Shown: piece after piece, positions 3,619 through 52,426 of the stretch
Numbering within the stretch: the first letter of the stretch is position 1
Layout: every line of letters begins with the position of its first letter
Assembly (NCBI GenBank): GCA_018920305.1
Contig: JAHLMO010000001.1
Span: 11,473 to 75,472, forward strand
Length of the DNA: 64,000 nt
Direction of reading: 5' to 3'
Source of the DNA: Candidatus Aenigmatarchaeota archaeon
Lineage (GTDB): Archaea; Aenigmatarchaeota; Aenigmatarchaeia; CG10238-14; SpSt-28
The notes under the pieces: generated by a model
Databases searched by the model: none
What the model saw: the letters and a program-made list of their open reading frames with translations, nothing else
Told to the model about the DNA's origin: nothing
Translations under genes and position numbers: made by a program

Positions 3619-4098
3619 CTATATTTCTATGTTTTTAATTAAATAATAAGCTAAATGTGTTTTCAAATCTTTAGATTCTTTCAGTTTTTCTACATCAAAA
3701 ATTCTTATTTCTTTAATTTCTTTTCTATTAAAATCTCTAACTTTTTTCAAATCGTATGCCAAGAAAAAATAAAACTTTTCATTAGAAATTCCAGGAGTAA
3801 CATAAAAACTTCCAATTTTTTTAATTTTTCCAATATAGCCAGTTTCTTCTAACAATTCTCTTTTAGCAGCTATATATTCGCTTTCGTTCCTTTCTATTTT
3901 TCCAGCAGGTAATTCCCACAAGTTTTTTCTAATAGGAAATCTATACTGTTTAACTAAAATTACCTTATTTTTATCTATTAAAGGTATTATTACAACAGCT
4001 TTAGAAACTTTTATAAATTCTATAGTTTTGTTTTCTAATTCATAAACAAAAAAAGAAATTTTATTACCTTCAAATTTTAATTTTAGAAATTTTTTCAT
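3619..4098 (-). CDS. Nudix hydrolase (ADP-ribose pyrophosphatase-like)
   Basis: The Nudix box is present: ELPAGKIERNESEYIAAKRELLEETG (Gx5Ex7REUxEExGU). Confidence 0.8.
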   Translation of the reverse strand: MKKFLKLKFEGNKISFFVYELENKTIEFIKVSKAVVIIPLIDKNKVILVKQYRFPIRKNLWELPAGKIERNESEYIAAKRELLEETGYIGKIKKIGSFYVTPGISNEKFYFFLAYDLKKVRDFNRKEIKEIRIFDVEKLKESKDLKTHLAYYLIKNIEI

Positions 4099-4502
4099 TT
4101 TTTACCTAAAATTTCTATTATAACTTTTCTTTCTCTGCTTCTATCTAATTCGATAAGTAATATTCTTTGCCAAGTACCTCTTATTAACTCACTATCTTTT
4201 ATTGGAAAAATTAAGAACTGTTTTAAATAGGAAGATGCTAAATGTGCTGATGCATTATCATCTATAAAATTATGTCTCCAATTACCTTCAAAATCTTTTT
4301 TTATTTTTTCAATTATATCTTCTTTTAAATTTTCCTCGTTTTCATTAGCTATTAAGCAAGTAGTTGCATGTGGTAAAAATATTAAGCAAATTCCCTCTTT
4401 AATATTTGAATTCCTTACAAAATTTTCTACTTCATTAGTTAAATCTACTATTTCATATTTTCTTTTTGTTTTAATGGTAAATTCTTTAAAAATAATTTCC
4501 AT
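4095..4502 (-). CDS. YjbQ/UPF0047 family protein (secondary thiamine-phosphate synthase-like)
   Basis: A 135-aa protein with the family-like blocks ICLIFLPHATTCLIANENE and GNWRHN...DNASAHLASS. Confidence 0.6.
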   Translation of the reverse strand: MEIIFKEFTIKTKRKYEIVDLTNEVENFVRNSNIKEGICLIFLPHATTCLIANENEENLKEDIIEKIKKDFEGNWRHNFIDDNASAHLASSYLKQFLIFPIKDSELIRGTWQRILLIELDRSRERKVIIEILGKK

Positions 4503-4511
4503 AAAAATTTA

Positions 4512-5387
4512 ATGAAGTTAGAAGAATATTTTGAAGAATATAAAAAGAGATTTGATAAACTAAAGAAAATTTCAGAAGAAGTTTGGAATTATATTGATAA
4601 GAATATAGAAAATGCTAATATATTAGAATTAGCAAAAAATATAGAAGAAAAAATAAAAGAATTAGGAGCAAAGCCAGCTTTTCCTGTAAATATTTCAATT
4701 AATGAAATCGCCGCCCATTATACGCCAGAGGAAAATTTCTACATAGATTTAGAAAAACATATGGTAAAAATAGATTTTGGAATTCATATAGATGGTTATA
4801 TTTTTGATACTGCAAAAACATACTATAAAGGAATTCATCAAGAAATTATAGAAGCAACAAAAAAAGCCTTTGAAGAGAGTTTAAAAGAAATAAAAAGCGG
4901 AAATAAAATAAATATTCCTGGAAAAATCGTAGAAGAAATTGCTAGCGAATATAAATTAAAACCTATAAGAAATTTAGGCGGACATGGATTAGGATATTTT
5001 AAAATTCATGATAAACCTAGTATATTAAATACATTTTTTAAAACAGAAGAAGAGTTTATAAGTGGAATGCCGATTGCTTGGGAAGTTTTTATAACAAACG
5101 GAAATGGATATGTAAAAGATAGTTATCCAGCTTTAATATTTGAAATCAAAAACATAGATAAAATAAATTTGATTAGAGTCGCAGAATTGAGAAAAATAAT
5201 AGAACATGCTTATAAAGAATTTAAAACTTTACCTTTTGCAAAAAGATGGCTAAATTTTGAAAAAAATTTAGTTGAATTAGCAATTAATGAAGGTGTAAAG
5301 AAAGATATAATATATGAATATTCTGTTTTAAAAGAATCTAAAAATTCTTTTGTTGCTCAATTTGAAACTACTATTATAGTAGAATAA
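4512..5387 (+). CDS. map: Methionine aminopeptidase, archaeal type 2
   Basis: It shows the M24 pita-bread motifs: AAHYTP, FGIHIDGYIFDTAKT, GGHGLGYFKIHDKP. Its length of about 291 aa is typical of archaeal MetAP. Confidence 0.85.
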   Translation: MKLEEYFEEYKKRFDKLKKISEEVWNYIDKNIENANILELAKNIEEKIKELGAKPAFPVNISINEIAAHYTPEENFYIDLEKHMVKIDFGIHIDGYIFDTAKTYYKGIHQEIIEATKKAFEESLKEIKSGNKINIPGKIVEEIASEYKLKPIRNLGGHGLGYFKIHDKPSILNTFFKTEEEFISGMPIAWEVFITNGNGYVKDSYPALIFEIKNIDKINLIRVAELRKIIEHAYKEFKTLPFAKRWLNFEKNLVELAINEGVKKDIIYEYSVLKESKNSFVAQFETTIIVE

Positions 5388-5819
5388 AATTAAAATTACA
5401 TATAAAATTATTGGTTGAAAAATGTTTTGAAAATTATAAAAATAGAAATCTAAATTTATTTCAAAATTTAATATTAAAAATATTTCAAAAATTATTCGAA
5501 AGAAATTTTGAAAATAAGCCAAAAATAAAAATAAAAAAATTAGCTTAAATTTTTTTCTTAATAAAAAAAACGGAAATATTAATAAAAAAGATGAAATTTT
5601 TAAACAATCTTTTGAAATTACAAATTCTATGTTATTTATATAAATTTTTTCGTTGACTCTAGTTATTTCAGAAAAATAAAAATTTAAGAATTTTTCGATG
5701 ATCATCGCATTTAAAATTTGAAAATAAAAAATATCTAAATAATCAAAAAGATAAACTAAGAATATTCCTATACTTAACGATATTAATATTTCAAAATACT
5801 TAGTAATTTTTCTTTCCAT
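5328..5819 (-). CDS. Hypothetical polytopic membrane protein of 163 aa
   Basis: A long ORF in a roughly 80% AT region, which is unlikely by chance given AT-rich stop codons. It is strongly hydrophobic with no recognisable family, and it overlaps the ends of both flanking genes. Confidence 0.3.
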   Translation of the reverse strand: MERKITKYFEILISLSIGIFLVYLFDYLDIFYFQILNAMIIEKFLNFYFSEITRVNEKIYINNIEFVISKDCLKISSFLLIFPFFLLRKKFKLIFLFLFLAYFQNFFRIIFEIFLILNFEINLDFYFYNFQNIFQPIILYVILILFYYNSSFKLSNKRIFRFF

Positions 5820-6736
5820 TTGTTTTTTAAATACTCTAATTTAATTTTTCCAATTTTTTCATATTTTGATGTATCATCAAAAATTAATTTGAAGTTCCAG
5901 ATATTTTCTATATTTTTATCAGTTATTACAAATTCAACTCCTAAATTCTCTATTATATAAAATTTTTCTATTTGATTTGATACAATAGCGAAATTATTTA
6001 TATATTGCTTAATAATTTTTAGGAAATCTTCATTAATTTCTTCTATCTTTAAATATGGAATTTCATTATCTTCTAACTTTAATTTCAAAATTTCTATAAC
6101 AGTTTTTAAAGCTTCGTTTTCTATTTCTAATTTTCTATCTCTTACTTCTCTAAATTCAATTATCTTTCTTTCTATTATTCTTTTATTTTTTAATTCTTCA
6201 ATCAAATCTTTTAATTTTTTGTTTTCTTCTTTTAGAATTTTTATTTTTTCTACTAATCTTTTAACATCTGTTGAATTGTAACTTTTGTAATTTTTTATAA
6301 GCTCTTTATTATCTTTATCTTTATTTGAATCATTTTTTTCGATTAAATTTTTTGTCTCAACTTTTTTATTCAATAATTTTTTTCTTAAAAATTTCATAGC
6401 TACTATTGCTGAAAATATTGCATCTCTTTCATGCCAATTATTATAAGAATAATTCGATGTTAACTTTTGTTTTTTGCTTTCTCTTACATTTTCTTTAGGA
6501 TGAAAAACTTTAACTCCTAAAGACTTTGAAATTTTTATTATTTTTTTTGGAACTTTAGCTACATCACAAGAAATTAATAAAGGCTTTCCAAATTTTATTA
6601 TATCATCTATCATTTCACTTATTTTATATTCTTTTTTACTTTTTAAAAATAATACATTAAGATTTTTATCTAAAATACAAATTGCAGAAGTTGTACCGAT
6701 ATCAATACCTACAACTATTTCATTCTGAATATTCAT
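5783..6736 (-). CDS. RNase H-like fold protein (DUF460/COG2433-type) with a long C-terminal coiled coil
   Basis: The N-terminus IVVGIDIGTTSAICILD is an RNase H-like or YqgF-like start. The C-terminal 120 aa form a heptad-repeat coiled coil (KILKEENKKLKDLIEELKNK...). Confidence 0.4.
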   Translation of the reverse strand: MNIQNEIVVGIDIGTTSAICILDKNLNVLFLKSKKEYKISEMIDDIIKFGKPLLISCDVAKVPKKIIKISKSLGVKVFHPKENVRESKKQKLTSNYSYNNWHERDAIFSAIVAMKFLRKKLLNKKVETKNLIEKNDSNKDKDNKELIKNYKSYNSTDVKRLVEKIKILKEENKKLKDLIEELKNKRIIERKIIEFREVRDRKLEIENEALKTVIEILKLKLEDNEIPYLKIEEINEDFLKIIKQYINNFAIVSNQIEKFYIIENLGVEFVITDKNIENIWNFKLIFDDTSKYEKIGKIKLEYLKNKWKEKLLSILKY

Positions 6737-21421: not shown

Positions 21422-23611
21422 ATGTATGTTATAGGAATTACTCCTGGTGTTTTTCAAATTGCTAGAGCTGCTGGTGCTGAGATTGCAAGAGAATTTGCAG
21501 GAATAGAAGAAAAATTAAGATATGGATATACCGTTGGATGTAATTTCTTTCAAATAGATCAAGAAGTTTTTGGAGAATTTGTAGAACCAAATTTAATTAA
21601 AAGAATTTCTAGATTAATTCAAGAAATGAATATTCAATGGGCATTACATGGATTATTAATTGGAGAAGTTTATCAAACATTAGAACCAATAAATTTTATT
21701 CTTTGGAAATTATCTCATTTAATTCTAAATAGAGATTTAATTTTTTTATACGAAATCTTGCAAGAAATAAAAAGGAATAATTATTCAAAAGAAGTTTTTC
21801 CACACTATACAATTTATCACGCAAGTAAAGAATTGGTTGTTGGTTATGCATACTTTAGGGAAAAAGAAATATTATCAGAAGTTTTAACTACAACTCCAGA
21901 GGGTAATACAGATTGGGATAGTTTCTTAGAAAAAAGAAGGAAATTAAAAGAATGGTTTCTAGAAAATCTATTTGAAATTTTATTTAAAAGAGAGGTTTCT
22001 AGAAGATTCGCAGGTTTTATTCCTTCTCCACTATCTCTTGCTTTAATTAATTCGTTATACATCCCTTTTAAAGATAATAAAATATCTGAAGAAGATCTAA
22101 GAAAAATTTTAGAGAAAATAAAAGAAGACATAAGTGAGATTAATATAGATAATATCGTTAGTTCTTTTAATAATCTTAAGGAAATTGGAATTAAGTTAAT
22201 TGATGAAAACATAATAAGAATTGAAGAAAAAGTTGGCAGTCCTTCTTTAATTAATTTTTTAAGAGATATATATCCAAAAATTAAAAAATTATTTGAAAAA
22301 GTAGAAATTTTCTTTAAAGAAAAAAATTTAGAAAATGAATTTAAAAAAGCGAAATTAGAAAGTTTAGAAAATTCTTATTTAATATATAAGCAACAGTATG
22401 AAAGAGGAATAGCAAAAGGTGCAATACTTTATGAAGATATAGCTATGGTACTAGTATGCAAGGATGTTGAATTTGGTTATTTCGAACCAAATTATAAATC
22501 TTTCTTATCAAAAAAGACTTGTGAATTTTTAATTAAAAGATTATTGGATGGGAAAAAAATTGAAGAGCACGTAAGAGAAGCTTATAAAAAATTAGACATT
22601 AAATTTGAAAAAGAATTAATAGATTTTGAAAGAGGAGAGATAAATTTAACTCCAAAATTAAATGTTTTAGCTTCAATCGTTTATTCAATTTCTCATTTTT
22701 TAGTTGGTATAGAGAATTTTCCCGAAATTTTGGATGAAACAAAAAGAAGGAATATTCATTTAAATGAAGAAGAAAGAAAAAGAATTGAAGAATTTGCGAA
22801 AAAAAGTCCGTATGAAAAATTGAAAATAATAATAGAGGAACTTAGAAAGATTGGAGTTGATAGAGAAGAAGCATTTTTTATTGCAATAGAAACTCCAGAA
22901 GCTTCTCCACCTTATGAAGGATTGAGAAGAATATGTAGATTAAAAGATGTCTTTATTACAAGTGAAGCTTTGAACTTAGAATTTCAAGTTAGATATAATA
23001 CAAATGAAAAAGCTTTTGCTGCATGTATTGATACAGAACATTTATTATCTAATGCATTTAATATAAACAATGAAATAGAAGAATTAATTAAATATATTGA
23101 AAAATGGAAAAACGAAATTTATTCAAGAGTCGCAATATACCATATAGGAATTCCAAAACCATATTTTGGAACTACACACATTCCCTTCGATATTGGAAGT
23201 GATGAACAATATTTAATTTATGAATATTCGTTTAAATTAAAAAAGGCTGGTTTTAATGATGAGAAAAAAAATAATTTAAAAAGATATAGTTATTTAATTT
23301 TTGAAAGAGGTGGTGGACAATTACCATTTCAATTTTTAAGAACTGTAATATTAGCATTAAGAATAATTAAGAAATATTTAGAAATGAATATAGAACCAAA
23401 TGAAATAGAAAAGAAAAAAGAATACTATTCTGAATTTTTTGGATTTGACGAACAATTTATTAGAGAAAAAGAAATTATTTTTCGACATGCACTAGAACCG
23501 TTAAAAGGACTAATTGTTTGGCCAGAAGAAACACATACAATTTTAGGAAGAGAAGCAATAGAAAGATTTAGAAAAAGACCAGAAGAATGGGCAGGAGAAG
23601 AATATAAATAA
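21422..23611 (+). CDS. Large hypothetical protein of 729 aa, with a possible xylose-isomerase-like TIM-barrel segment
   Basis: It is long and unbroken in AT-rich DNA. The C-terminal third has blocks reminiscent of the AP-endonuclease-2/sugar-phosphate-isomerase TIM-barrel fold (AACIDTEHLL..., RVAIYHIGIP...HIPFDIGSDE). No confident family assignment can be made. Confidence 0.55.
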   Translation: MYVIGITPGVFQIARAAGAEIAREFAGIEEKLRYGYTVGCNFFQIDQEVFGEFVEPNLIKRISRLIQEMNIQWALHGLLIGEVYQTLEPINFILWKLSHLILNRDLIFLYEILQEIKRNNYSKEVFPHYTIYHASKELVVGYAYFREKEILSEVLTTTPEGNTDWDSFLEKRRKLKEWFLENLFEILFKREVSRRFAGFIPSPLSLALINSLYIPFKDNKISEEDLRKILEKIKEDISEINIDNIVSSFNNLKEIGIKLIDENIIRIEEKVGSPSLINFLRDIYPKIKKLFEKVEIFFKEKNLENEFKKAKLESLENSYLIYKQQYERGIAKGAILYEDIAMVLVCKDVEFGYFEPNYKSFLSKKTCEFLIKRLLDGKKIEEHVREAYKKLDIKFEKELIDFERGEINLTPKLNVLASIVYSISHFLVGIENFPEILDETKRRNIHLNEEERKRIEEFAKKSPYEKLKIIIEELRKIGVDREEAFFIAIETPEASPPYEGLRRICRLKDVFITSEALNLEFQVRYNTNEKAFAACIDTEHLLSNAFNINNEIEELIKYIEKWKNEIYSRVAIYHIGIPKPYFGTTHIPFDIGSDEQYLIYEYSFKLKKAGFNDEKKNNLKRYSYLIFERGGGQLPFQFLRTVILALRIIKKYLEMNIEPNEIEKKKEYYSEFFGFDEQFIREKEIIFRHALEPLKGLIVWPEETHTILGREAIERFRKRPEEWAGEEYK

Positions 23612-43242: not shown

Positions 43243-44331
43243 ATGGAAATACAAAAATCAAAATGTAAAGTTTGCGGAAGCGAAAACATAATTTTTGATT
43301 CAAGTAGAGGCGAATATCTCTGTCAAAATTGTGGAGCTGTCCTAGAAGATTATGTCATTGATTTATCTCAAGAATGGAGAGCTTTTAGTAGCGAACAATT
43401 AGAAAGAAGAGCAAGAACAGGTAGTCCATTGTCTATTGTTAAACATGATAAAGGATTATCAACACAAGTTGGAAAGGGAACAGCAGAGCTATATAAGGTT
43501 CCTACCGAAAAAAGATTTCAATACTATAGATTAACTCAATGGAGTAAAAGGTTGTCGACTTCAAAAGACAGAAACATAAGTTATGCATTATCAGAATTAC
43601 AAAGAATTGTATCTTCATTACAGCTTCCGAAAACTGTTTTAGAAAGAGCTGCAATGTATTACGAACAGTTAATAAGTAGAGGTGCAATAAGAGGAAGAAG
43701 TCTAGAAGGTATAATTGCTTCTTTAGTCTATTATGCTGCAAAAGAATTACATACACCAAGAACATTTGATGAAATCGCTGAAGTTGTTGGAATAGATAAA
43801 AGAGAATTAGGAAGAGTATATAGATATGTTGCAAGAGAACTTGGATTAAGAATATTGCCAGCAGATGCGAGAGATTTTATACCTAGATTCTGTAGTTTAA
43901 TAAATGTAAGTGAAAAAGTTCAAAAAAGAGCATTAGAATTATTAGAGCAAGCAGAGAAAGCTGGAATTGTAAGTGGAAAAGGTCCAACAGGAATCGCTGC
44001 TGCTGTAATATTTATTGCATCCTTATTAGAAGGAGAAAGAAGAACTCAAAGAGAAATTGCTGAAAAATGTAAACTAACTGAAGTAACAATAAGAAATAGA
44101 TATAAGGAAATTGTTGAGAGATTAGGATTAGAAAATATTATAAAAGAAAAAGAGGCTGAATTGGAAAAAGAAGAAACTATAGAAAAGAAAATAGAGAAAA
44201 AAGAGGAAAAAGTTATAATACCATTAATAAAAAAGAAAGAAGAGAAAAAAGAGGAAAAAAAGATAGGAAAAAAAGAGAAGAAAAAAGAAAAGAAGGTTAA
44301 GAAGAAAAAAAGCAAAAAAGTTAAAAAGTAG
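43243..44331 (+). CDS. tfb: Transcription initiation factor TFB with a Lys/Glu-rich C-terminal extension
   Basis: The N-terminal zinc ribbon is CKVCGSENIIFDSSRGEYLCQNCG. It is followed by the B-reader/linker, two cyclin folds and a recognition helix (KLTEVTIRNRYKEI). The last roughly 60 aa are low-complexity KE repeats (KKEEKKEEKKIGKKEKKKEKKVKKKKSKKVKK). Confidence 0.9.
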   Translation: MEIQKSKCKVCGSENIIFDSSRGEYLCQNCGAVLEDYVIDLSQEWRAFSSEQLERRARTGSPLSIVKHDKGLSTQVGKGTAELYKVPTEKRFQYYRLTQWSKRLSTSKDRNISYALSELQRIVSSLQLPKTVLERAAMYYEQLISRGAIRGRSLEGIIASLVYYAAKELHTPRTFDEIAEVVGIDKRELGRVYRYVARELGLRILPADARDFIPRFCSLINVSEKVQKRALELLEQAEKAGIVSGKGPTGIAAAVIFIASLLEGERRTQREIAEKCKLTEVTIRNRYKEIVERLGLENIIKEKEAELEKEETIEKKIEKKEEKVIIPLIKKKEEKKEEKKIGKKEKKKEKKVKKKKSKKVKK

Positions 44332-47761: not shown

Positions 47762-48898
47762 ATGCTTTGGGTTTTTAAATATAGGCCAAAAAGCTTGAAC
47801 GAATTTGTAAATCAAAAAGAAGCAATACAAAAATTTATACAATGGTATAAAAATTGGAAAAATATTAAAAAAGCTGCTTTATTATTTGGTCCGCCTGGAA
47901 CTGGAAAGAGTTGTTTTGTTGAAGCTTTTGCTAGAGATAATAATTTAGAACTAATACAATTAAATGCTAGCGACAAAAGAGATTATAACTCTATTAGAAA
48001 TATTATTGGAAATGCGGCAAAAACTTTAAGTATTTCTAAAAAAGGAAAAATGTTTTTTATAGATGAGGTTGATGGAATTTCTGCTAGAGAAGACACTGGT
48101 GCAGTAAAAGAAATTATTAGAATTATTCAAGAATCAAAATTTCCAATAGTTTTAGCAGCTAATGATCCGTTTGATCCAAAATTAAAGGAATTAAGAGAAA
48201 ATTGCGAATTAATAGAATTTAAAAGATTAAGTGTTTTTGATATTGAAAAAAAGCTTATTGAAATATTAGAAAAAGAGGGAATAAAGTATGATAGAAGTAT
48301 TGTAAGAGAAATTGCAAGTAGAAACAATGGAGATTTAAGAGGGGCTATAAATGATTTAGAAATTGTTGCTAGAAATAAAAAAGAAATAAAAAGAGAAGAT
48401 CTAGAAATATTAGGATTTAGAGATAGAGAACAACAAATATTCGAAGCACTAAAAATTCTTTTTAAAACGAAAAGTGCTATGGCTGCAAAATTGAGTATTG
48501 TTAATTTAGATATGGAACCTGATGAAATATTTTATTGGATTGAGGAAAACATTGCAAACGAATATGAAAAAATAGAAGAAATTGCACGCGCATACGAATG
48601 TTTAAGCAAAGCGGATTTATTTAGAAAAAGAATATTATCTAGACAAAATTGGAGATATTTAGTTTATATGAATGATTTAATGGCAATTGGAGTCGCATTA
48701 TCTAAAAAAGAAATGTATAGAAAATTTACAAAATATAGACCACCAAGTATTTTGAAACTACTAGCACAAACAAAACAGATAAGAGAACAGGAAAAGATAA
48801 AGTTGAAAGAATTTACCGAAAAATTACACTGTTCAACAAAAAAGATTAAAACAGAGTTTATGCCATATTTATCAAAAATTTTTGAAGGAAAAAAATAA
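47762..48898 (+). CDS. rfcL: Replication factor C large subunit
   Basis: Walker A is ALLFGPPGTGKS and Walker B is FFIDEVDG. The sensor region and the clamp-loader AAA+ lid are present. It is the second RFC paralog in the window. Confidence 0.8.
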   Translation: MLWVFKYRPKSLNEFVNQKEAIQKFIQWYKNWKNIKKAALLFGPPGTGKSCFVEAFARDNNLELIQLNASDKRDYNSIRNIIGNAAKTLSISKKGKMFFIDEVDGISAREDTGAVKEIIRIIQESKFPIVLAANDPFDPKLKELRENCELIEFKRLSVFDIEKKLIEILEKEGIKYDRSIVREIASRNNGDLRGAINDLEIVARNKKEIKREDLEILGFRDREQQIFEALKILFKTKSAMAAKLSIVNLDMEPDEIFYWIEENIANEYEKIEEIARAYECLSKADLFRKRILSRQNWRYLVYMNDLMAIGVALSKKEMYRKFTKYRPPSILKLLAQTKQIREQEKIKLKEFTEKLHCSTKKIKTEFMPYLSKIFEGKK

Positions 48899-48902
48899 TT
48901 TT

Positions 48903-51900
48903 ATGAGAAGAAAAGAAATTTTTTTAACTTTTTTATTTTTTACGATATTTATATATAGTTTATCGTTGTCTTTTTCTCAATCCTGGCTTTCTGATTGGCA
49001 ATATAGAATTCCAATAACAATAACAGAAAGAAGTGGAAATACTTTAACAGATTACCAAGTTTTAGTAGTAATTAATACACAAAATTTAATTTCTCAAGGA
49101 AAAATGAGAAGTGATTGTGGAGATATTAGATTTACCGATAGTGATGGAAGAACTTTACTAAATTATTGGATTGAAAGTGGATGTAATACGAATAATACAA
49201 GAATTTGGGTTAAAGTTCCAAATATTCCCGCTAGATCAAATAAAACAATTTATTTGTACTATGGAAATCCAAATGCTACAAGTTTAAGTAATATTTCTTC
49301 AGTATTTATTTGGACACAAAGAGAAATATTTCCAAACATTCCTAATTCAACATGGGGATCTGGATCATCTAATCCAGAAGATACATTCAACACGTACTAT
49401 CATGATGCAAGAAATGAAATATTAATTAGAGCTTCTGATTTTGGAAGAGATATAGCTCCAGTAAACATAACTGCATTAAGAATTTATGTAGTTCAACAGC
49501 CAGGAAGAGATTTAGATAATTATAGAGTAAGATATCAATTAACTACTAGAAATCAACTTACAAACAACTTTACAACTACTGGATGGATTTTAGTTTTTGG
49601 ACCTACTAATTTAGGAAGACCATCAGCAGGATCTGTAGTTACTTTAAATTTAAATCCACAAATAATTTGGACGAATCATTCTTTAAATTTATTGTTAGAT
49701 TTATCCAGAGATACAAATTCATATGTTGCTGGAGGGGGAATGTATAGAAAACTTGTAAATATTCCTAATACAATGTGTACTTTTTGGAGTGATTCTGGCA
49801 GAGTTTGGCCTTTTGATGGTACTTGTAATTTAAGAAACTATGTGCCAAGCATAATATTTGTCGGATGGTTTAGAAAATATATTTCTCCAGAACCAACAAT
49901 TTCTTTAGGAAATGAAGAATATCAAAGAAATCTAAATCCAATATGGATAAGATATGCATCTAATACTTCTTACGCTATAATTAATCAGCCTATACTATTC
50001 TCAAGTCTGTGGAATGCATCCCAAATTCAATCTAATTTATCTTTATCGCACTATATTTTTTCATATAAAATAGGAGATTCGCAATGGATCAATGAAACCT
50101 ACAGATTTAGTTCTGCTCCTCAAAATTGGCTTTCTGATTGGCAATATAGAATTCCAATAACAATAACAGAAAGAAGTGGAAATACTTTAACAGATTACCA
50201 AGTTTTAGTAGTAATTAATACACGAAACCTAATTTCTCAAGGCAAAATGAGAAATGATTGTGGAGATATAAGATTTACCGATAGTGATGGAAGAACTTTA
50301 TTAAATTATTGGATTGAAAGAGGATGTAATTCTGCTAATACAAGAATTTGGGTTAAAGTACCGAATATTCCTGCTAATTCAAATAAAACAATTTATTTGT
50401 ATTATGGAAATCCCAGTGCTACAAGTTTGAGCAATATTTCTAGAGTATTTGTTTGGGCCGAAAGAGAAATATTTCCAAACATTCCTAATTCAACATGGGG
50501 ATCTGGATCATCTAATCCAGAAGATACATTCAACACGTACTATCATGATGCAAGAAATGAAATATTAATTAGAGCTTCTGATTTCGGAAGAGATATAGCT
50601 CCAGTAAACATAACTGCATTAAGAATTTATGTAGTTCAACAGCCAGGAAGAGATTTAGATAATTATAGAGTAAGATATCAATTAACTACTAGAAATCAAC
50701 TTACAAACAACTTTACAACTTCCGGCTGGATTTTAGTTTTTGGACCTACTAATTTAGGAAGACCATCAGCAGGATCTGTAGTTACTTTAAATTTAAATCC
50801 ACAAATAATTTGGACAAATCATTCTTTAAATTTATTGTTAGATTTATCTAGAGATACATTTTCATGGGTTTCTGGAGGGGGAATGTATAGAAAACTTGTA
50901 AATATTCCTAATACAATGTGTACTTTTTGGAGTGATTCTGGCAGAGTTTGGCCTTTTGATGGTACTTGTAATTTAAGAAACTATGTGCCAAGCATAATAT
51001 TTGTCGGATGGTTTAGAAAATATATTTCTCCAGAACCAACAATTTCTTTAGGAAATGAAGAAACAAATTTACCTTTTACGGCATGGGCAAATGTTACAAA
51101 AAGCTTTTCTCAAGCTGGAAATTTATGTTGGAGATTTTATGTAAATAATTCTCTTGGTCTGTGGAACTCAACGCCGATAGATTGTAGTATTAATATAATT
51201 CCTCCCGAATTTTCACTAGAAGTTAAATTAGTCCAACCAAATGAAAATTCTATAAATAATCTAACTGTTGGAGAATCTTTAAATATAAGAGCTCATGTAA
51301 AATTGAAATCTCAATACAATTTCTGTATAGATGTAAATGCATATTTAAGATATAATGCTTCATCAAGCATGCCAGATTCTTTCGTTCCAACTTCCGCTAA
51401 TTCAATAATGTCAAATGTTAATCCTATATCTTTTAATTTATGTACAAATCAAGAAATTCCAATAAATTTTACAATATATGCAAATAAACCAAGTTTTAAA
51501 GTTTTAGATGTAAATTTTTGTGCTCTAAATATCTGCAACGATACATCAGACTTTTATGTTAATATCTCTATAGTTGCAACGAGAGACTTTAAATTAAGGA
51601 AAGGTTGGAACTTAATTTCGATACCACATAAGTTTATATATTTTGATTTAAGTAATGATGATTGTAATATAAGGGAAAAAATATTTCATCATTATAATGC
51701 ATCCTCAAATTCTTGGACATATTTTACTTATGATAAATTACTTCCAGGTATTTCATATTGGGTTTATAGCGAAAAGGATTGTACCTCTAAAATTGCAGTA
51801 AGTGGAACAGTTAATTTAAGCGATTTGCCAAAAGCTATAAAAGGAAGAAAAAATTTTATTGGTTCTTTAACTTCTTTAACAAACTTAAATCAAGTTGCAC

Positions 51901-52013
51901 AATATATTGGATGTAATAATCCTATACTTAGATATTGGGATACTTCTACTAACTCTTTTAGACAATCTACAATTTTAGAACCTTGGAAAGGTTATATACT
52001 CGAATGTAGTTAA
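48903..52013 (+). CDS. Large secreted/surface protein of about 1040 aa with two near-identical tandem beta-sandwich repeats (DUF2341-like WxYRxPITI...IWVKVP...IYLYYGN motif)
   Basis: The N-terminal signal peptide is MRRKEIFLTFLFFTIFIYSLSLSFS. There are many N-x-S/T sequons and Cys pairs. Two repeat units of about 312 aa are roughly 95% identical. The track ORF starts at 48882 and overlaps the rfcL end, so the Met at 48903 was preferred. Confidence 0.75.
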   Translation: MRRKEIFLTFLFFTIFIYSLSLSFSQSWLSDWQYRIPITITERSGNTLTDYQVLVVINTQNLISQGKMRSDCGDIRFTDSDGRTLLNYWIESGCNTNNTRIWVKVPNIPARSNKTIYLYYGNPNATSLSNISSVFIWTQREIFPNIPNSTWGSGSSNPEDTFNTYYHDARNEILIRASDFGRDIAPVNITALRIYVVQQPGRDLDNYRVRYQLTTRNQLTNNFTTTGWILVFGPTNLGRPSAGSVVTLNLNPQIIWTNHSLNLLLDLSRDTNSYVAGGGMYRKLVNIPNTMCTFWSDSGRVWPFDGTCNLRNYVPSIIFVGWFRKYISPEPTISLGNEEYQRNLNPIWIRYASNTSYAIINQPILFSSLWNASQIQSNLSLSHYIFSYKIGDSQWINETYRFSSAPQNWLSDWQYRIPITITERSGNTLTDYQVLVVINTRNLISQGKMRNDCGDIRFTDSDGRTLLNYWIERGCNSANTRIWVKVPNIPANSNKTIYLYYGNPSATSLSNISRVFVWAEREIFPNIPNSTWGSGSSNPEDTFNTYYHDARNEILIRASDFGRDIAPVNITALRIYVVQQPGRDLDNYRVRYQLTTRNQLTNNFTTSGWILVFGPTNLGRPSAGSVVTLNLNPQIIWTNHSLNLLLDLSRDTFSWVSGGGMYRKLVNIPNTMCTFWSDSGRVWPFDGTCNLRNYVPSIIFVGWFRKYISPEPTISLGNEETNLPFTAWANVTKSFSQAGNLCWRFYVNNSLGLWNSTPIDCSINIIPPEFSLEVKLVQPNENSINNLTVGESLNIRAHVKLKSQYNFCIDVNAYLRYNASSSMPDSFVPTSANSIMSNVNPISFNLCTNQEIPINFTIYANKPSFKVLDVNFCALNICNDTSDFYVNISIVATRDFKLRKGWNLISIPHKFIYFDLSNDDCNIREKIFHHYNASSNSWTYFTYDKLLPGISYWVYSEKDCTSKIAVSGTVNLSDLPKAIKGRKNFIGSLTSLTNLNQVAQYIGCNNPILRYWDTSTNSFRQSTILEPWKGYILECS
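48984..49920 (+). repeat. Tandem intragenic direct repeat, unit 1 (about 937 nt)
   Basis: It is nearly identical at the nucleotide level to 50127-51063, with an offset of 1143 nt. The second half of the unit is essentially 100% identical. Confidence 0.85.
50127..51063 (+). repeat. Tandem intragenic direct repeat, unit 2 (about 937 nt)
   Basis: It is the copy of 48984-49920. The two units are separated by a spacer of about 206 nt that has diverged from the corresponding sequence after unit 2. Confidence 0.85.
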
Positions 52014-52015
52014 AA

Positions 52016-52426
52016 TTAGCTAGGTTTCCAGCTAAATACAATTATTTCTTTGTAAAAAACCTTACCATCACTAAATATTAATTCAACTTCGCTTGTAGTT
52101 GGTAACTCTGTTGGTTGAAAAGGATATTGACAAGGAGAAACTCTAACATTTAAAGAAACATAATATCCAAAATCTTCTAATTTTTCTAACATTTTTGTAA
52201 ATTCTTCAATATTATATTTGAATTCATCGCAGTCTTTAGATAAATTAACGATTTCTAAAAATTTTTCTTTTATATTTTTAATTAATAATGCATATTCTGG
52301 TAAATAATATGAAGGATTTATAAAAAAAACACTGCTAATATTAAAATACAAAGTTATTAAAATACCTACAATTAGTATTGCTGCTAATGTCATAAATTGA
52401 GCTTTATAATATTTGTAAAATGGCAT
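52016..52426 (-). CDS. Hypothetical membrane-anchored protein of 136 aa
   Basis: It has an N-terminal TM helix (MTLAAILIVGILITLYF) and no family signature. It is convergent with the large surface protein, ending 3 nt from it. Confidence 0.4.
   Translation of the reverse strand: MPFYKYYKAQFMTLAAILIVGILITLYFNISSVFFINPSYYLPEYALLIKNIKEKFLEIVNLSKDCDEFKYNIEEFTKMLEKLEDFGYYVSLNVRVSPCQYPFQPTELPTTSEVELIFSDGKVFYKEIIVFSWKPS

Follow-up and report, generated by a model that had tools for sequence, protein, structure and literature searches.

Allelic variation of whole domains in a two-slot DUF2341 gene of DPANN archaea

Why should a run of archaeal housekeeping genes harbor a gene with two nearly identical 936-nt units, and what do these units say about the protein that carries them? 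We addressed this question in a 64,000-nt stretch (the window) of contig JAHLMO010000001.1 (positions 11,473 to 75,472), which belongs to a metagenome-assembled genome (MAG) of a Candidatus Aenigmatarchaeota archaeon. The gene encodes MBU5682164.1, a protein of 1036 amino acids (aa) that NCBI names 'DUF2341 domain-containing protein'. Each of its two units consists of a DUF2341 adaptor (D), a 196-aa cargo that we call X, and a 17-aa tail. We found that close relatives of this archaeon carry at the same locus either a single unit or cargoes that share no DNA similarity with X. We consider it rather probable that the gene product is a secreted surface protein of modular build, and that homologous recombination exchanges, duplicates, and deletes its ligand-binding heads.

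Alleles of the locus in close relatives

The gene lies in the same synteny in eight other assemblies of close relatives, all of them MAGs. The syntenic locus has rfcL upstream and a 136-aa gene, DUF424, and aIF2-beta downstream, and flank identities across the related loci range from ~91.7 to 100%. The window allele holds X in both slots and can be written (X,X). Two relatives, L001 and L006, have a single X unit between flanks that are 98.8-100% and 99.4-100% identical to those of the window, respectively. Their gene encodes 655 aa, which is 1036 minus 381 aa, or exactly 1143 nt. L005 is (Z,X) with flanks of 99.5-100%, and L002 is (A,B) with 98.5-99.5% over full-length flanking genes. L011 (flank 98.6%) has A in slot 1, and its contig stops 405 nt into the gene. 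L004 carries (X,B) in a complete 1076-aa gene on a 549-kb contig with flanks of 94-96.5%, and L003 (flanks 91.7-97.6%) has B in slot 2, its slot 1 being left unassigned. Cargoes A, B, and Z show no DNA similarity to X. An earlier reading of the window's letters alone (the original prediction) had anticipated that the number of repeats might vary among strains, as the two one-unit genes show it does. That reading had also proposed a surface-variation locus, and the case is now stronger than the one it made, since whole domains differ between near-identical strains.

The exchanged segments have sharp ends. X, A, B, and Z are found in the two slots between flanks that are ~94-100% identical, and between alleles the similarity in DNA breaks off at 49279 and 50422 and returns at 49870 and 51013, that is, at the D/cargo and cargo/tail junctions. 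The left junction directly follows the motif IYLYYGNPxATS[L/M]SN, and the right junction directly precedes [RK]KYxSxEPxxSLGNEE. The tail variant co-varies with the cargo: RKYISPEPTIS accompanies X, RKYVSPEPTVS accompanies A and Z, and RKYSSIEPxxS accompanies B.

Which cargo is the older occupant of each slot? Cargo B is 95.9% identical between L002 and L003 and 92.9% identical between L002 and L004, in step with the flanks, and because its divergence parallels theirs we regard B as the older occupant of slot 2. Identity between the slot-1 X of L004 and the window's first copy, X1, is 89%, which is about the divergence of the flanks. X therefore appears to be old in slot 1 and to have been copied into slot 2 in the window lineage. 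The adaptors have evolved in concert. D1 and D2 of L004 are 98.6% identical to one another and 90-91% identical to either D of the window, and the window's own two copies are 93.2% identical. Because both lineages share the two-slot architecture and the spacer between the units, this concerted evolution points to gene conversion rather than independent duplication. Synonymous divergence (dS) is 0.06 between X1 and X2, 0.20 between D1 and D2, and ~0.2 between the two lineages. Recent gene conversion had been favored over a single old duplication in the original prediction, and the values for D in L004 (98.6% versus ~90%) and for dS (0.06 versus 0.20) bear this out.

The one-unit alleles carry signatures of their own. 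The single unit of L001 agrees with unit 1 at all 29 of the informative sites through 49442 and with unit 2 at all 10 from 49578 onward, a chimera that would be the expected product of an unequal crossover within a 135-nt identical stretch. The single unit of L006 is a finer mosaic of the form U1/U2/U1/U2. Unit copy number thus varies among these strains, with a crossover inside the repeat and with assembly collapse as a caveat. Because near-identical strains carry one copy or different heads, we regard the duplication in the window as one allele of a recombination hot spot.

What drives the exchange? No recombinase or reverse transcriptase was found among the gene's neighbors in the window, the only repeat found was the pair at the 1143-nt offset, and there was no notable inverted repeat nearby. 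Moreover, the differences between the two units are not specific to adenine, since 14 of the 39 involve no adenine in either copy. General homologous recombination is therefore the simplest mechanism, and it would act on the conserved D and tail/spacer sequences. The lack of a reverse transcriptase or second repeat nearby, together with the 14 adenine-free differences, also led us to reject a diversity-generating retroelement (DGR). The ratio of non-synonymous to synonymous substitution rates (dN/dS) is 0.2-0.56 in the gene (0.27-0.56 in X) versus 0.03-0.12 in the neighbors, and constraint on the gene appears to be relaxed yet purifying.

Adaptor, cargo, and tail in this and other proteins

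We measured the repeat by register-by-register comparison at an offset of 1143 nt; the program TRF returned nothing because its longest period, 500, is below that offset. The units (48984-49919 and 50127-51062) are 95.8% identical in DNA, a similarity far beyond chance, and the tandem intragenic duplication reported in the original prediction is real. So is its estimate of ~95% identity in protein, for which we count 297 of 312 residues (95.2%). The two copies differ at 39 nt sites and in 31 codons, of which 16 differ synonymously and 15 non-synonymously. Identity is a mosaic, with 100% over 48984-49079 (96 nt), 88% over 49080-49319, and long identical runs thereafter. The distal 600 nt had been described as essentially 100% identical, which was slightly overstated: the figure is 98.2%, since 11 positions differ, and uninterrupted stretches of identity measure 122, 135, and 191 nt. 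Nor are the ~200-nt sequences that follow each unit diverged copies of one another, as had been thought. Comparison of 49920-50126 with 51063-51269 revealed no similarity (BLASTP E=27; tblastn), and in relatives the sequences after the units are distinct modules that can sit side by side. The spacer between the units is 100% identical in DNA in L002 and 99.5% identical in L005, both closely related two-slot alleles.

The adaptor belongs to a known family. Pfam DUF2341 (PF10102) matches the protein twice, with E=4.5e-49 and 165.3 bits against a cut-off of 23.4, which upholds the assignment made from the sequence signature. The best stretch, aa 452-517, aligns to model positions 1-66 of 84, and of D the model takes in just the C-terminal half, together with ~10 aa of cargo. 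Its last ~18 positions, which usually form the start of a concanavalin A (ConA)-like domain (NGDxTFxFFDDF), are unmatched in this protein.

Cargo X is of a different kind. It has no match in Pfam, NCBIfam, PHROGs, or PDB sequences. Word-indexed searches returned a single protein with X alone and nine with an X profile, and an exhaustive search of representatives was needed; with X, this search gave 173 cluster representatives (50% identity clusters) at E<=0.001. The relatives are parts of large multidomain proteins, some of which contain DUF2341 and some of which do not. One has a dockerin, and in the bacterial protein P0124 an N_methyl pilin motif is followed by DUF2341 and X. The invariant positions of the family are NTxxHDxR, RDD, GGGM, and DSxxWPFD. 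AlphaFold predicts X alone as a confident beta-sandwich (pLDDT 92.7, and >90 in context). The best structural matches in the PDB, found with Foldseek, are a phi812 baseplate protein and the Bxb1 tail tip, with template-modeling (TM) scores of 0.46-0.49; the best matches in a library of viral models are tail-fibre and minor-tail proteins (TM 0.45-0.58). The original prediction had associated the units with the concanavalin/LamG class of beta-sandwiches. We could not sustain this assignment for X, which has no Pfam match and which Foldseek aligns to ConA with a TM of only 0.26-0.29 (E ~8e-3). ConA-like matches do occur for the alternative cargoes in other alleles and homologues.

How are the pieces held together? 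In an AlphaFold model of aa 323-1036 (714 aa, pLDDT 84.7), D2 and X2 are predicted with high confidence, and tail 1 and the first half of the spacer with low confidence. Tail 2 has a pLDDT of 39-64 in the isolated X model and >90 once D is included, which hints that the tail packs against the adaptor. The C-terminal region is modeled as several beta domains, about three judging from the strand list, and Foldseek returned only generic Ig/MG-like multi-domain matches for the 714-aa model. The last ~150 aa (51570-52010, aa ~890-1036) have a pLDDT >90 and contain an internal two-fold motif, GWNLISIP...W...GYWVY...C followed by NFIGS...YWD...PWKGYILEC. This domain is common to the otherwise different DUF2341 proteins P0010, P0043, P0114, and P0058, and it had no match in PHROGs, PDB-sequence, or Pfam searches. 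The constant C-terminal region may be a stalk or anchor, with the last ~150 aa as a candidate anchor domain. Distant homologues have one, two, or three units (three in P0003 and P0004), and in them the spacer pieces La and Lb act as connectors between units. The spacer and the start of the C-terminal region may be a single domain that is interrupted by unit 2, because both pieces are contiguous in P0010.

Several features speak for export. The N-terminus (MRRKEIFLTFLFFTIFIYSLSLSFSQ) is compatible with a Sec signal, having a hydrophobic core after MRRKE, and looks like the signal peptide that the original prediction had seen there. Lysine makes up 2.8% of the protein versus 12-14% of five of the six neighboring proteins measured (6% in the sixth, TrkH). 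Sequons of the form N-x-S/T number 28 versus 18.9 +/- 3.8 in shuffles, which confirms the sequon richness that had been noted, and cytoplasmic neighbors have 0-0.6 per 100 aa. The 18 cysteines, which had been described as paired, are even in number in every domain: two in each D, two in each X, and ten in the C-terminal part. Composition, sequons, and even cysteine counts agree with the extracellular character that had been proposed, and the protein is probably secreted, glycosylated, and disulphide-bonded. Association with an S-layer, which had also been suggested, drew no support, as no S-layer or SLH-type domain was found in any segment with Pfam and NCBIfam; a novel anchor is compatible with this result.

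The arrangement of adaptor, cargo, and tail is not confined to this locus. The 120 best homologues contain 248 copies of D, and behind 128 of these comes the tail motif, at a median distance of 193 aa. Sorted by similarity, the cargoes enclosed by D and tail in this set form 41 groups. A Nanopusillaceae MAG (L008, 2805-4645) encodes a 461-aa protein in which a pilin-like hydrophobic N-terminus is joined to D-X-tail as the C-terminal two-thirds. Its X is 85% identical in protein to that of the window, and the gene adjoins and follows a 152-aa archaellin-like gene. An orthologue in a different MAG that is 97.6% identical (L009, 5263-6648) has three in-frame stops (TGG>TAG twice, AGA>TGA) and appears to be a pseudogene or to contain sequence errors.

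The module is also found in tail proteins. P0070 (L010, JAWAKR010000095.1, GCA_038887395.1, 189-3746) is a 1185-aa tail-fibre-like protein with GNVGIGTTNP repeats, whose N-terminal 870 aa match a PHROG tail fibre (E=5e-23) and whose C-terminal end is D-A-tail. Over 906 ungapped nt, its DNA shares 94.8% identity with slot 1 of L002. The bin of this contig (Ignisphaera sp.) is doubtful because the flanks have 24% G+C. In the viral contig L012 (IMGVR_UViG_3300050342_000003), which has weak head-protease and tape-measure matches (E ~6e-4) and clearer tail-protein matches (E down to 4e-14), the last ~300 aa of a 710-aa tail protein (3813-5945) are D, a ConA-like cargo, and an RKYTSPEP tail. A Caudoviricetes record assigned to Methanomicrobiales contains a D-like stretch as well. 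Because D-cargo-tail is reused in pilin-like, tail-fibre-like, and viral tail proteins and in the homologues, it appears to be a general and portable unit, usually placed at the distal end of fibres.

The gene and its neighborhood

The open reading frame ends at 52013 on the forward strand and would encode 1043 aa from TTG 48882 or 1036 aa from ATG 48903. We took the ATG as the start because homologues begin there (MRRKEIF); the TTG would add 7 aa and create an overlap with rfcL. From the ATG, a 4-nt gap separates the gene from the rfcL stop codon (TAA, 48896-48898), and the overlap with this stop that was part of the original prediction disappears. A small gene just downstream is convergent, as had been said, at a distance of 2 nt rather than 3. 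Table 1 lists the features.

Table 1. Parts of the DUF2341 gene and its convergent neighbor, in window coordinates
Feature	Coordinates	Strand	Remarks
Complete gene, 1036 aa + stop	48903..52013	+	NCBI MBU5682164.1; MAG contig of 166,942 bp
Signal-peptide-like N-terminus, aa 1-26	48903..48980	+	MRRKE, hydrophobic core, SFS/Q; identical in orthologues
D1, DUF2341 adaptor of unit 1, aa 27-126	48981..49280	+	Pfam PF10102; similarity to L011 ends at 49279
X1, slot-1 cargo, aa 127-322	49281..49868	+	Predicted beta-sandwich, no Pfam family
Tail 1, aa 323-339	49869..49919	+	FRKYISPEPTISLGNEE; conserved strand closing each unit
Spacer ('link'), 69 aa, aa 340-408	49920..50126	+	Unique; sub-pieces La + Lb, from homologue comparison
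D2, DUF2341 adaptor of unit 2, aa 409-507	50127..50423	+	Best Pfam stretch aa 452-517
X2, slot-2 cargo, aa 508-703	50424..51011	+	Cargo B here in L002, L003, and L004
Tail 2, aa 704-720	51012..51062	+	Identical to tail 1
Constant C-terminal region, 316 aa, aa 721-1036	51063..52010	+	No Pfam or PDB relative
Convergent 136-aa gene	52016..52426	-	Syntenic in every allele; class III-like N-terminus

The convergent 136-aa gene had no family match. The segment with which it begins, MPFYKYYKA/QFMTLAAILIVGILITLYF, looks like the class III (prepilin) signal peptides of archaea and is the only class III-like N-terminus among the neighbors of the giant gene. We considered whether it might be a homologue of the L008 pilin and rejected this, as there is no similarity between them. 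A functional association between this gene and the giant gene is conjectural. In L004 and L005, gene callers picked a later start, giving 125 aa.

The window also carries archaeal housekeeping genes, namely those for TFB, methionyl-tRNA synthetase (MetRS), S5, L18, L19e, the RFC large subunit, DUF424, aIF2-beta, TrkH, prolyl-tRNA synthetase (ProRS), PolB, RNR, and CDC48. The neighbors of the giant gene (rfcL, ribosomal proteins, MetRS, DUF424, aIF2-beta, and TrkH) do not include the ATPase, TadC, and pilins of a pilus locus. A sigma-70 promoter scan did no better than shuffles, and sigma-70 is irrelevant to an archaeon. Elsewhere in the window, the TFB homologue (43243-44331, +) has a ~60-aa Lys/Glu-rich low-complexity C-terminal extension (KKEEKKIGKKEKKKEKK...), and a 729-aa open reading frame amid replication genes (21422-23611, +) has no Pfam match at E<=0.001.

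The related MAGs differ in a few further respects. The L004 genome, ~95% related to the window, has an extra NAD-dependent epimerase/dehydratase gene (3927-4856) between L19e and rfcL that the window and L006 do not have. In L006, rfcL (1065-2210) is called as 381 aa with a 4-nt overlap with the giant gene, apparently owing to a 1-nt indel relative to the window (alignment 1138 versus 1137 nt). Near-identical alleles (98-100%) have been deposited under two phylum labels, Candidatus Aenigmatarchaeota and Nanopusillaceae/Nanobdellota, both within Nanobdellati (DPANN); because alleles this similar bear different phylum-level labels, the MAG taxonomy is inconsistent. Three of the related MAGs have isolate names (ZZQ, GMQS, DRC) that resemble hot-spring sample codes, and no record states a habitat.

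Explanations and likeness to known systems

How might such a locus work? The distal ends of phage tail fibres are binding domains, and host-range cassettes are exchanged among them by recombination at conserved junctions. Because binding domains occupy the distal ends of tail fibres, and have been proposed to do so in pilus-tip proteins, we read this gene as encoding a surface protein with exchangeable binding heads. In the literature, DUF2341 proteins of archaeal type IV pilus loci are predicted to be adhesins at the pilus tip (PMC4858521). In M. maripaludis, a transposon screen for mutants defective in transformation recovered multiple insertions in a DUF2341 gene of the epd pilus locus (PMC10133366). 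We propose that a constant C-terminal stalk or anchor carries two heads, each made of D, a ~200-aa beta-sandwich cargo, and the tail strand. The D and tail/spacer sequences around each cargo would serve as homology arms for general recombination, with no dedicated recombinase or retroelement. Three outcomes could follow. Gene conversion between units would lead to concerted evolution of D and to the copying of X into slot 2; unequal crossover would yield one-unit alleles; and a cargo could be replaced by a different one from other D-cargo-tail genes. In the (X,X) allele of the window, X would have replaced the ancestral cargo B in slot 2. The heads would bind receptors or ligands, and swapping them would alter the specificity of attachment to a host cell or substrate.

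Several points weigh against this proposal. The structural matches of X appear weak to moderate (TM <=0.58) and are to generic jelly-rolls, X is a putative binding domain in which no ligand site was identified, and the pairing of D with the tail is suggested by pLDDT alone. Our searches found no recognized anchor domain, and there is no type IV pilus gene cluster beside the gene. Point changes give no signal of positive selection, with dN/dS <1 everywhere. Finally, all alleles come from MAGs, and any single one may be a strain chimera or a collapse.

A wider idea is more tentative, and we would not press it. DUF2341 and the tail strand might together form a universal split 'cassette holder' that accepts any beta-sandwich binding domain as an insert. 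Through its conserved DNA, homologous recombination could move heads between chromosomal surface proteins, pilin-like proteins, and the tail fibres of viruses from the same hot springs, such that an episymbiotic DPANN archaeon and viruses share one pool of host-recognition heads. The observation that points this way is cargo A, with its 94.8% DNA identity between the L002 allele and a tail-fibre-like gene.

Could the heads instead be enzymes or nutrient-scavenging modules, such as glycan hydrolases or lyases that attack polymers of the host or the environment, with cassette variation tuning the substrate range? Many alternative cargoes are of the ConA-like lectin/glucanase kind, examples being 3keto-disac_hyd, whose match in P0003 exceeds the cut-off, and Laminin_G and L-type lectin, whose matches are weak. 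The invariant polar residues of X (NTxxHDxR, RDD, GGGM, DSxxWPFD) could form an active site, and the dockerin of one X-family member also fits this explanation. However, searches of Pfam, NCBIfam, and PDB sequences with X turned up no catalytic family, the module is located distally in tail-fibre and pilin-like proteins, where binding domains typically are, and the structural neighbors of X are phage receptor-binding proteins. We consider a role in catalysis or scavenging unlikely.

An assembly artefact seems less likely still. The (X,X) allele, or the one-unit and mixed alleles, could have arisen from short-read assembly over a repeat where several strains are mixed. Of the eight related contigs, four have an end within the gene, and that of L001 begins 254 nt upstream; these breaks fit a repeat combined with strain heterogeneity, and because the locus is a recurrent MAG breakpoint its diversity is under-sampled. 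L001 is the exact chimera that collapse through the identical 135-nt stretch would yield, and X1 and X2 have identical runs of 122-191 nt. However, the units differ at 39 sites and are set apart by a unique 207-nt spacer. The two-slot form with its spacer is found independently in the window (on a 167-kb contig), L002, L004 (549-kb), and L005. Cargo A is in slot 1 of two assemblies (L002 and L011), cargo B is in three with divergence that tracks the flanks, the one-unit gene is in two, and the mosaic of L006 lies on a contig that covers both flanks. Moreover, the concerted evolution of D within L004 is not explicable by assembly. Collapse and chimerism could hardly account for the series taken together.

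It is quite improbable, in our view, that the protein is mainly a target, such as a virus receptor or exposed antigen, in which new heads and altered copy numbers would be favored because they allow escape from viruses. Viral tail proteins with the same adaptor and related cargoes do show gene traffic between viruses and these surface genes, and Nanoarchaeota populations have a raised density of non-synonymous single-nucleotide polymorphisms (SNPs) in hypothetical surface proteins (PMC6142677). However, sharing a module with tail fibres argues more for binding the same ligand than for being the ligand, and nothing in our analysis identifies a virus of this organism. This explanation is about what drives selection, and the recombination mechanism proposed above could hold alongside it. 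Least credible of all is that the gene is the remnant of an integrated virus, a domesticated tail fibre, for although D-cargo-tail occurs in the tail protein of the IMG/VR contig and in a tail-fibre-like protein, we reject a prophage remnant on synteny (the gene lies between rfcL and translation/ribosomal genes in nine assemblies with no other viral gene), and the gene begins with a signal-peptide-like segment, has no fibre-like N-terminal region, and has a G+C content of 28-30%, only slightly above the ~25% of the window.

Why does the locus matter if it encodes exchangeable surface heads? Host recognition and attachment by DPANN episymbionts are largely unknown and have few candidate molecules; this locus is a concrete candidate that is easy to find between rfcL and aIF2-beta. 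Since the putative heads differ between nearly identical strains, one could relate head type to host range or attachment. Our comparison also defines a working unit (adaptor, cargo, and tail) for the widespread and uncharacterized DUF2341 domain, and X is a new cargo family without a Pfam model. The presence of the same module in viral tail proteins suggests that, in archaeal communities, cells and viruses exchange recognition domains. The domain annotation of the protein is already known, as are modular adhesins, tail-fibre mosaicism, and repeat copy-number variation as principles. The literature searches we made found no description of DUF2341-cargo-tail as an exchanged cassette, of a strain-level two-slot allelic series in DPANN, of the X cargo family, or of cassette sharing with tail-fibre genes.

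Tandem-repeat surface proteins of the Alp/Rib and Bap types have long, near-identical intragenic repeats and alleles that differ in copy number by whole units. Our locus is like them in its whole-unit differences (one versus two here, and three in P0003 and P0004). However, its units are not uniform spacers, and each slot can take a different, unrelated domain. In this respect it is closer to the mosaic ends of phage tail fibres, in which a distal binding domain within conserved flanks is exchanged between unrelated genes. The likeness extends to the parts themselves: D-cargo-tail occurs in tail proteins (L012 and P0070), and the nearest folds to X are those of tail-fibre and minor-tail proteins. 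Unlike in phages, the module here is chromosomal, in the housekeeping neighborhood of a cellular organism, and stands in tandem behind a signal-peptide-like N-terminus.

The DUF2341 proteins of archaeal pilus loci (PF10102; MJ1470/arCOG03508-type, M. maripaludis MMJJ_08210) share with this protein the DUF2341 domain, large size, and extracellular location; they are predicted pilus-tip adhesins (PMC4858521), and in the relative L008 the module is fused to a pilin-like N-terminus. In contrast, our gene lies outside a pilus locus, its product starts with a signal-peptide-like segment and ends in a C-terminal region of 316 aa that is private to it, and its cargo X is not the usual ConA-like domain. 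The adhesin role in those proteins is itself predicted. Bacterial fibrillar adhesins that diversify by domain shuffling, such as CshA-type proteins (PMC10952558) and cases of receptor-domain shuffling (PMC8860441), offer another parallel: a signal peptide, a beta-sandwich stalk, and a variable binding head, with whole domains being swapped. Unlike them, our protein is archaeal (DPANN), uses a DUF2341 adaptor, and has no recognized anchor such as LPXTG or an autotransporter. Its variation, moreover, lies between strains that are 98-100% identical in the flanks.

Surface variation in DPANN archaea is known in other forms. Proteins of DPANN that are diversified by DGRs undergo adenine-directed mutagenesis by a reverse transcriptase, an enzyme that is not encoded near our locus. 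In Nanoarchaeota, as here, surface genes of an episymbiont are the most variable, and hypervariable surface proteins have been proposed to act in host recognition (PMC6142677). However, variation takes the form of point substitutions in both of those cases, whereas at the locus described here it takes the form of whole ~600-nt cassettes.

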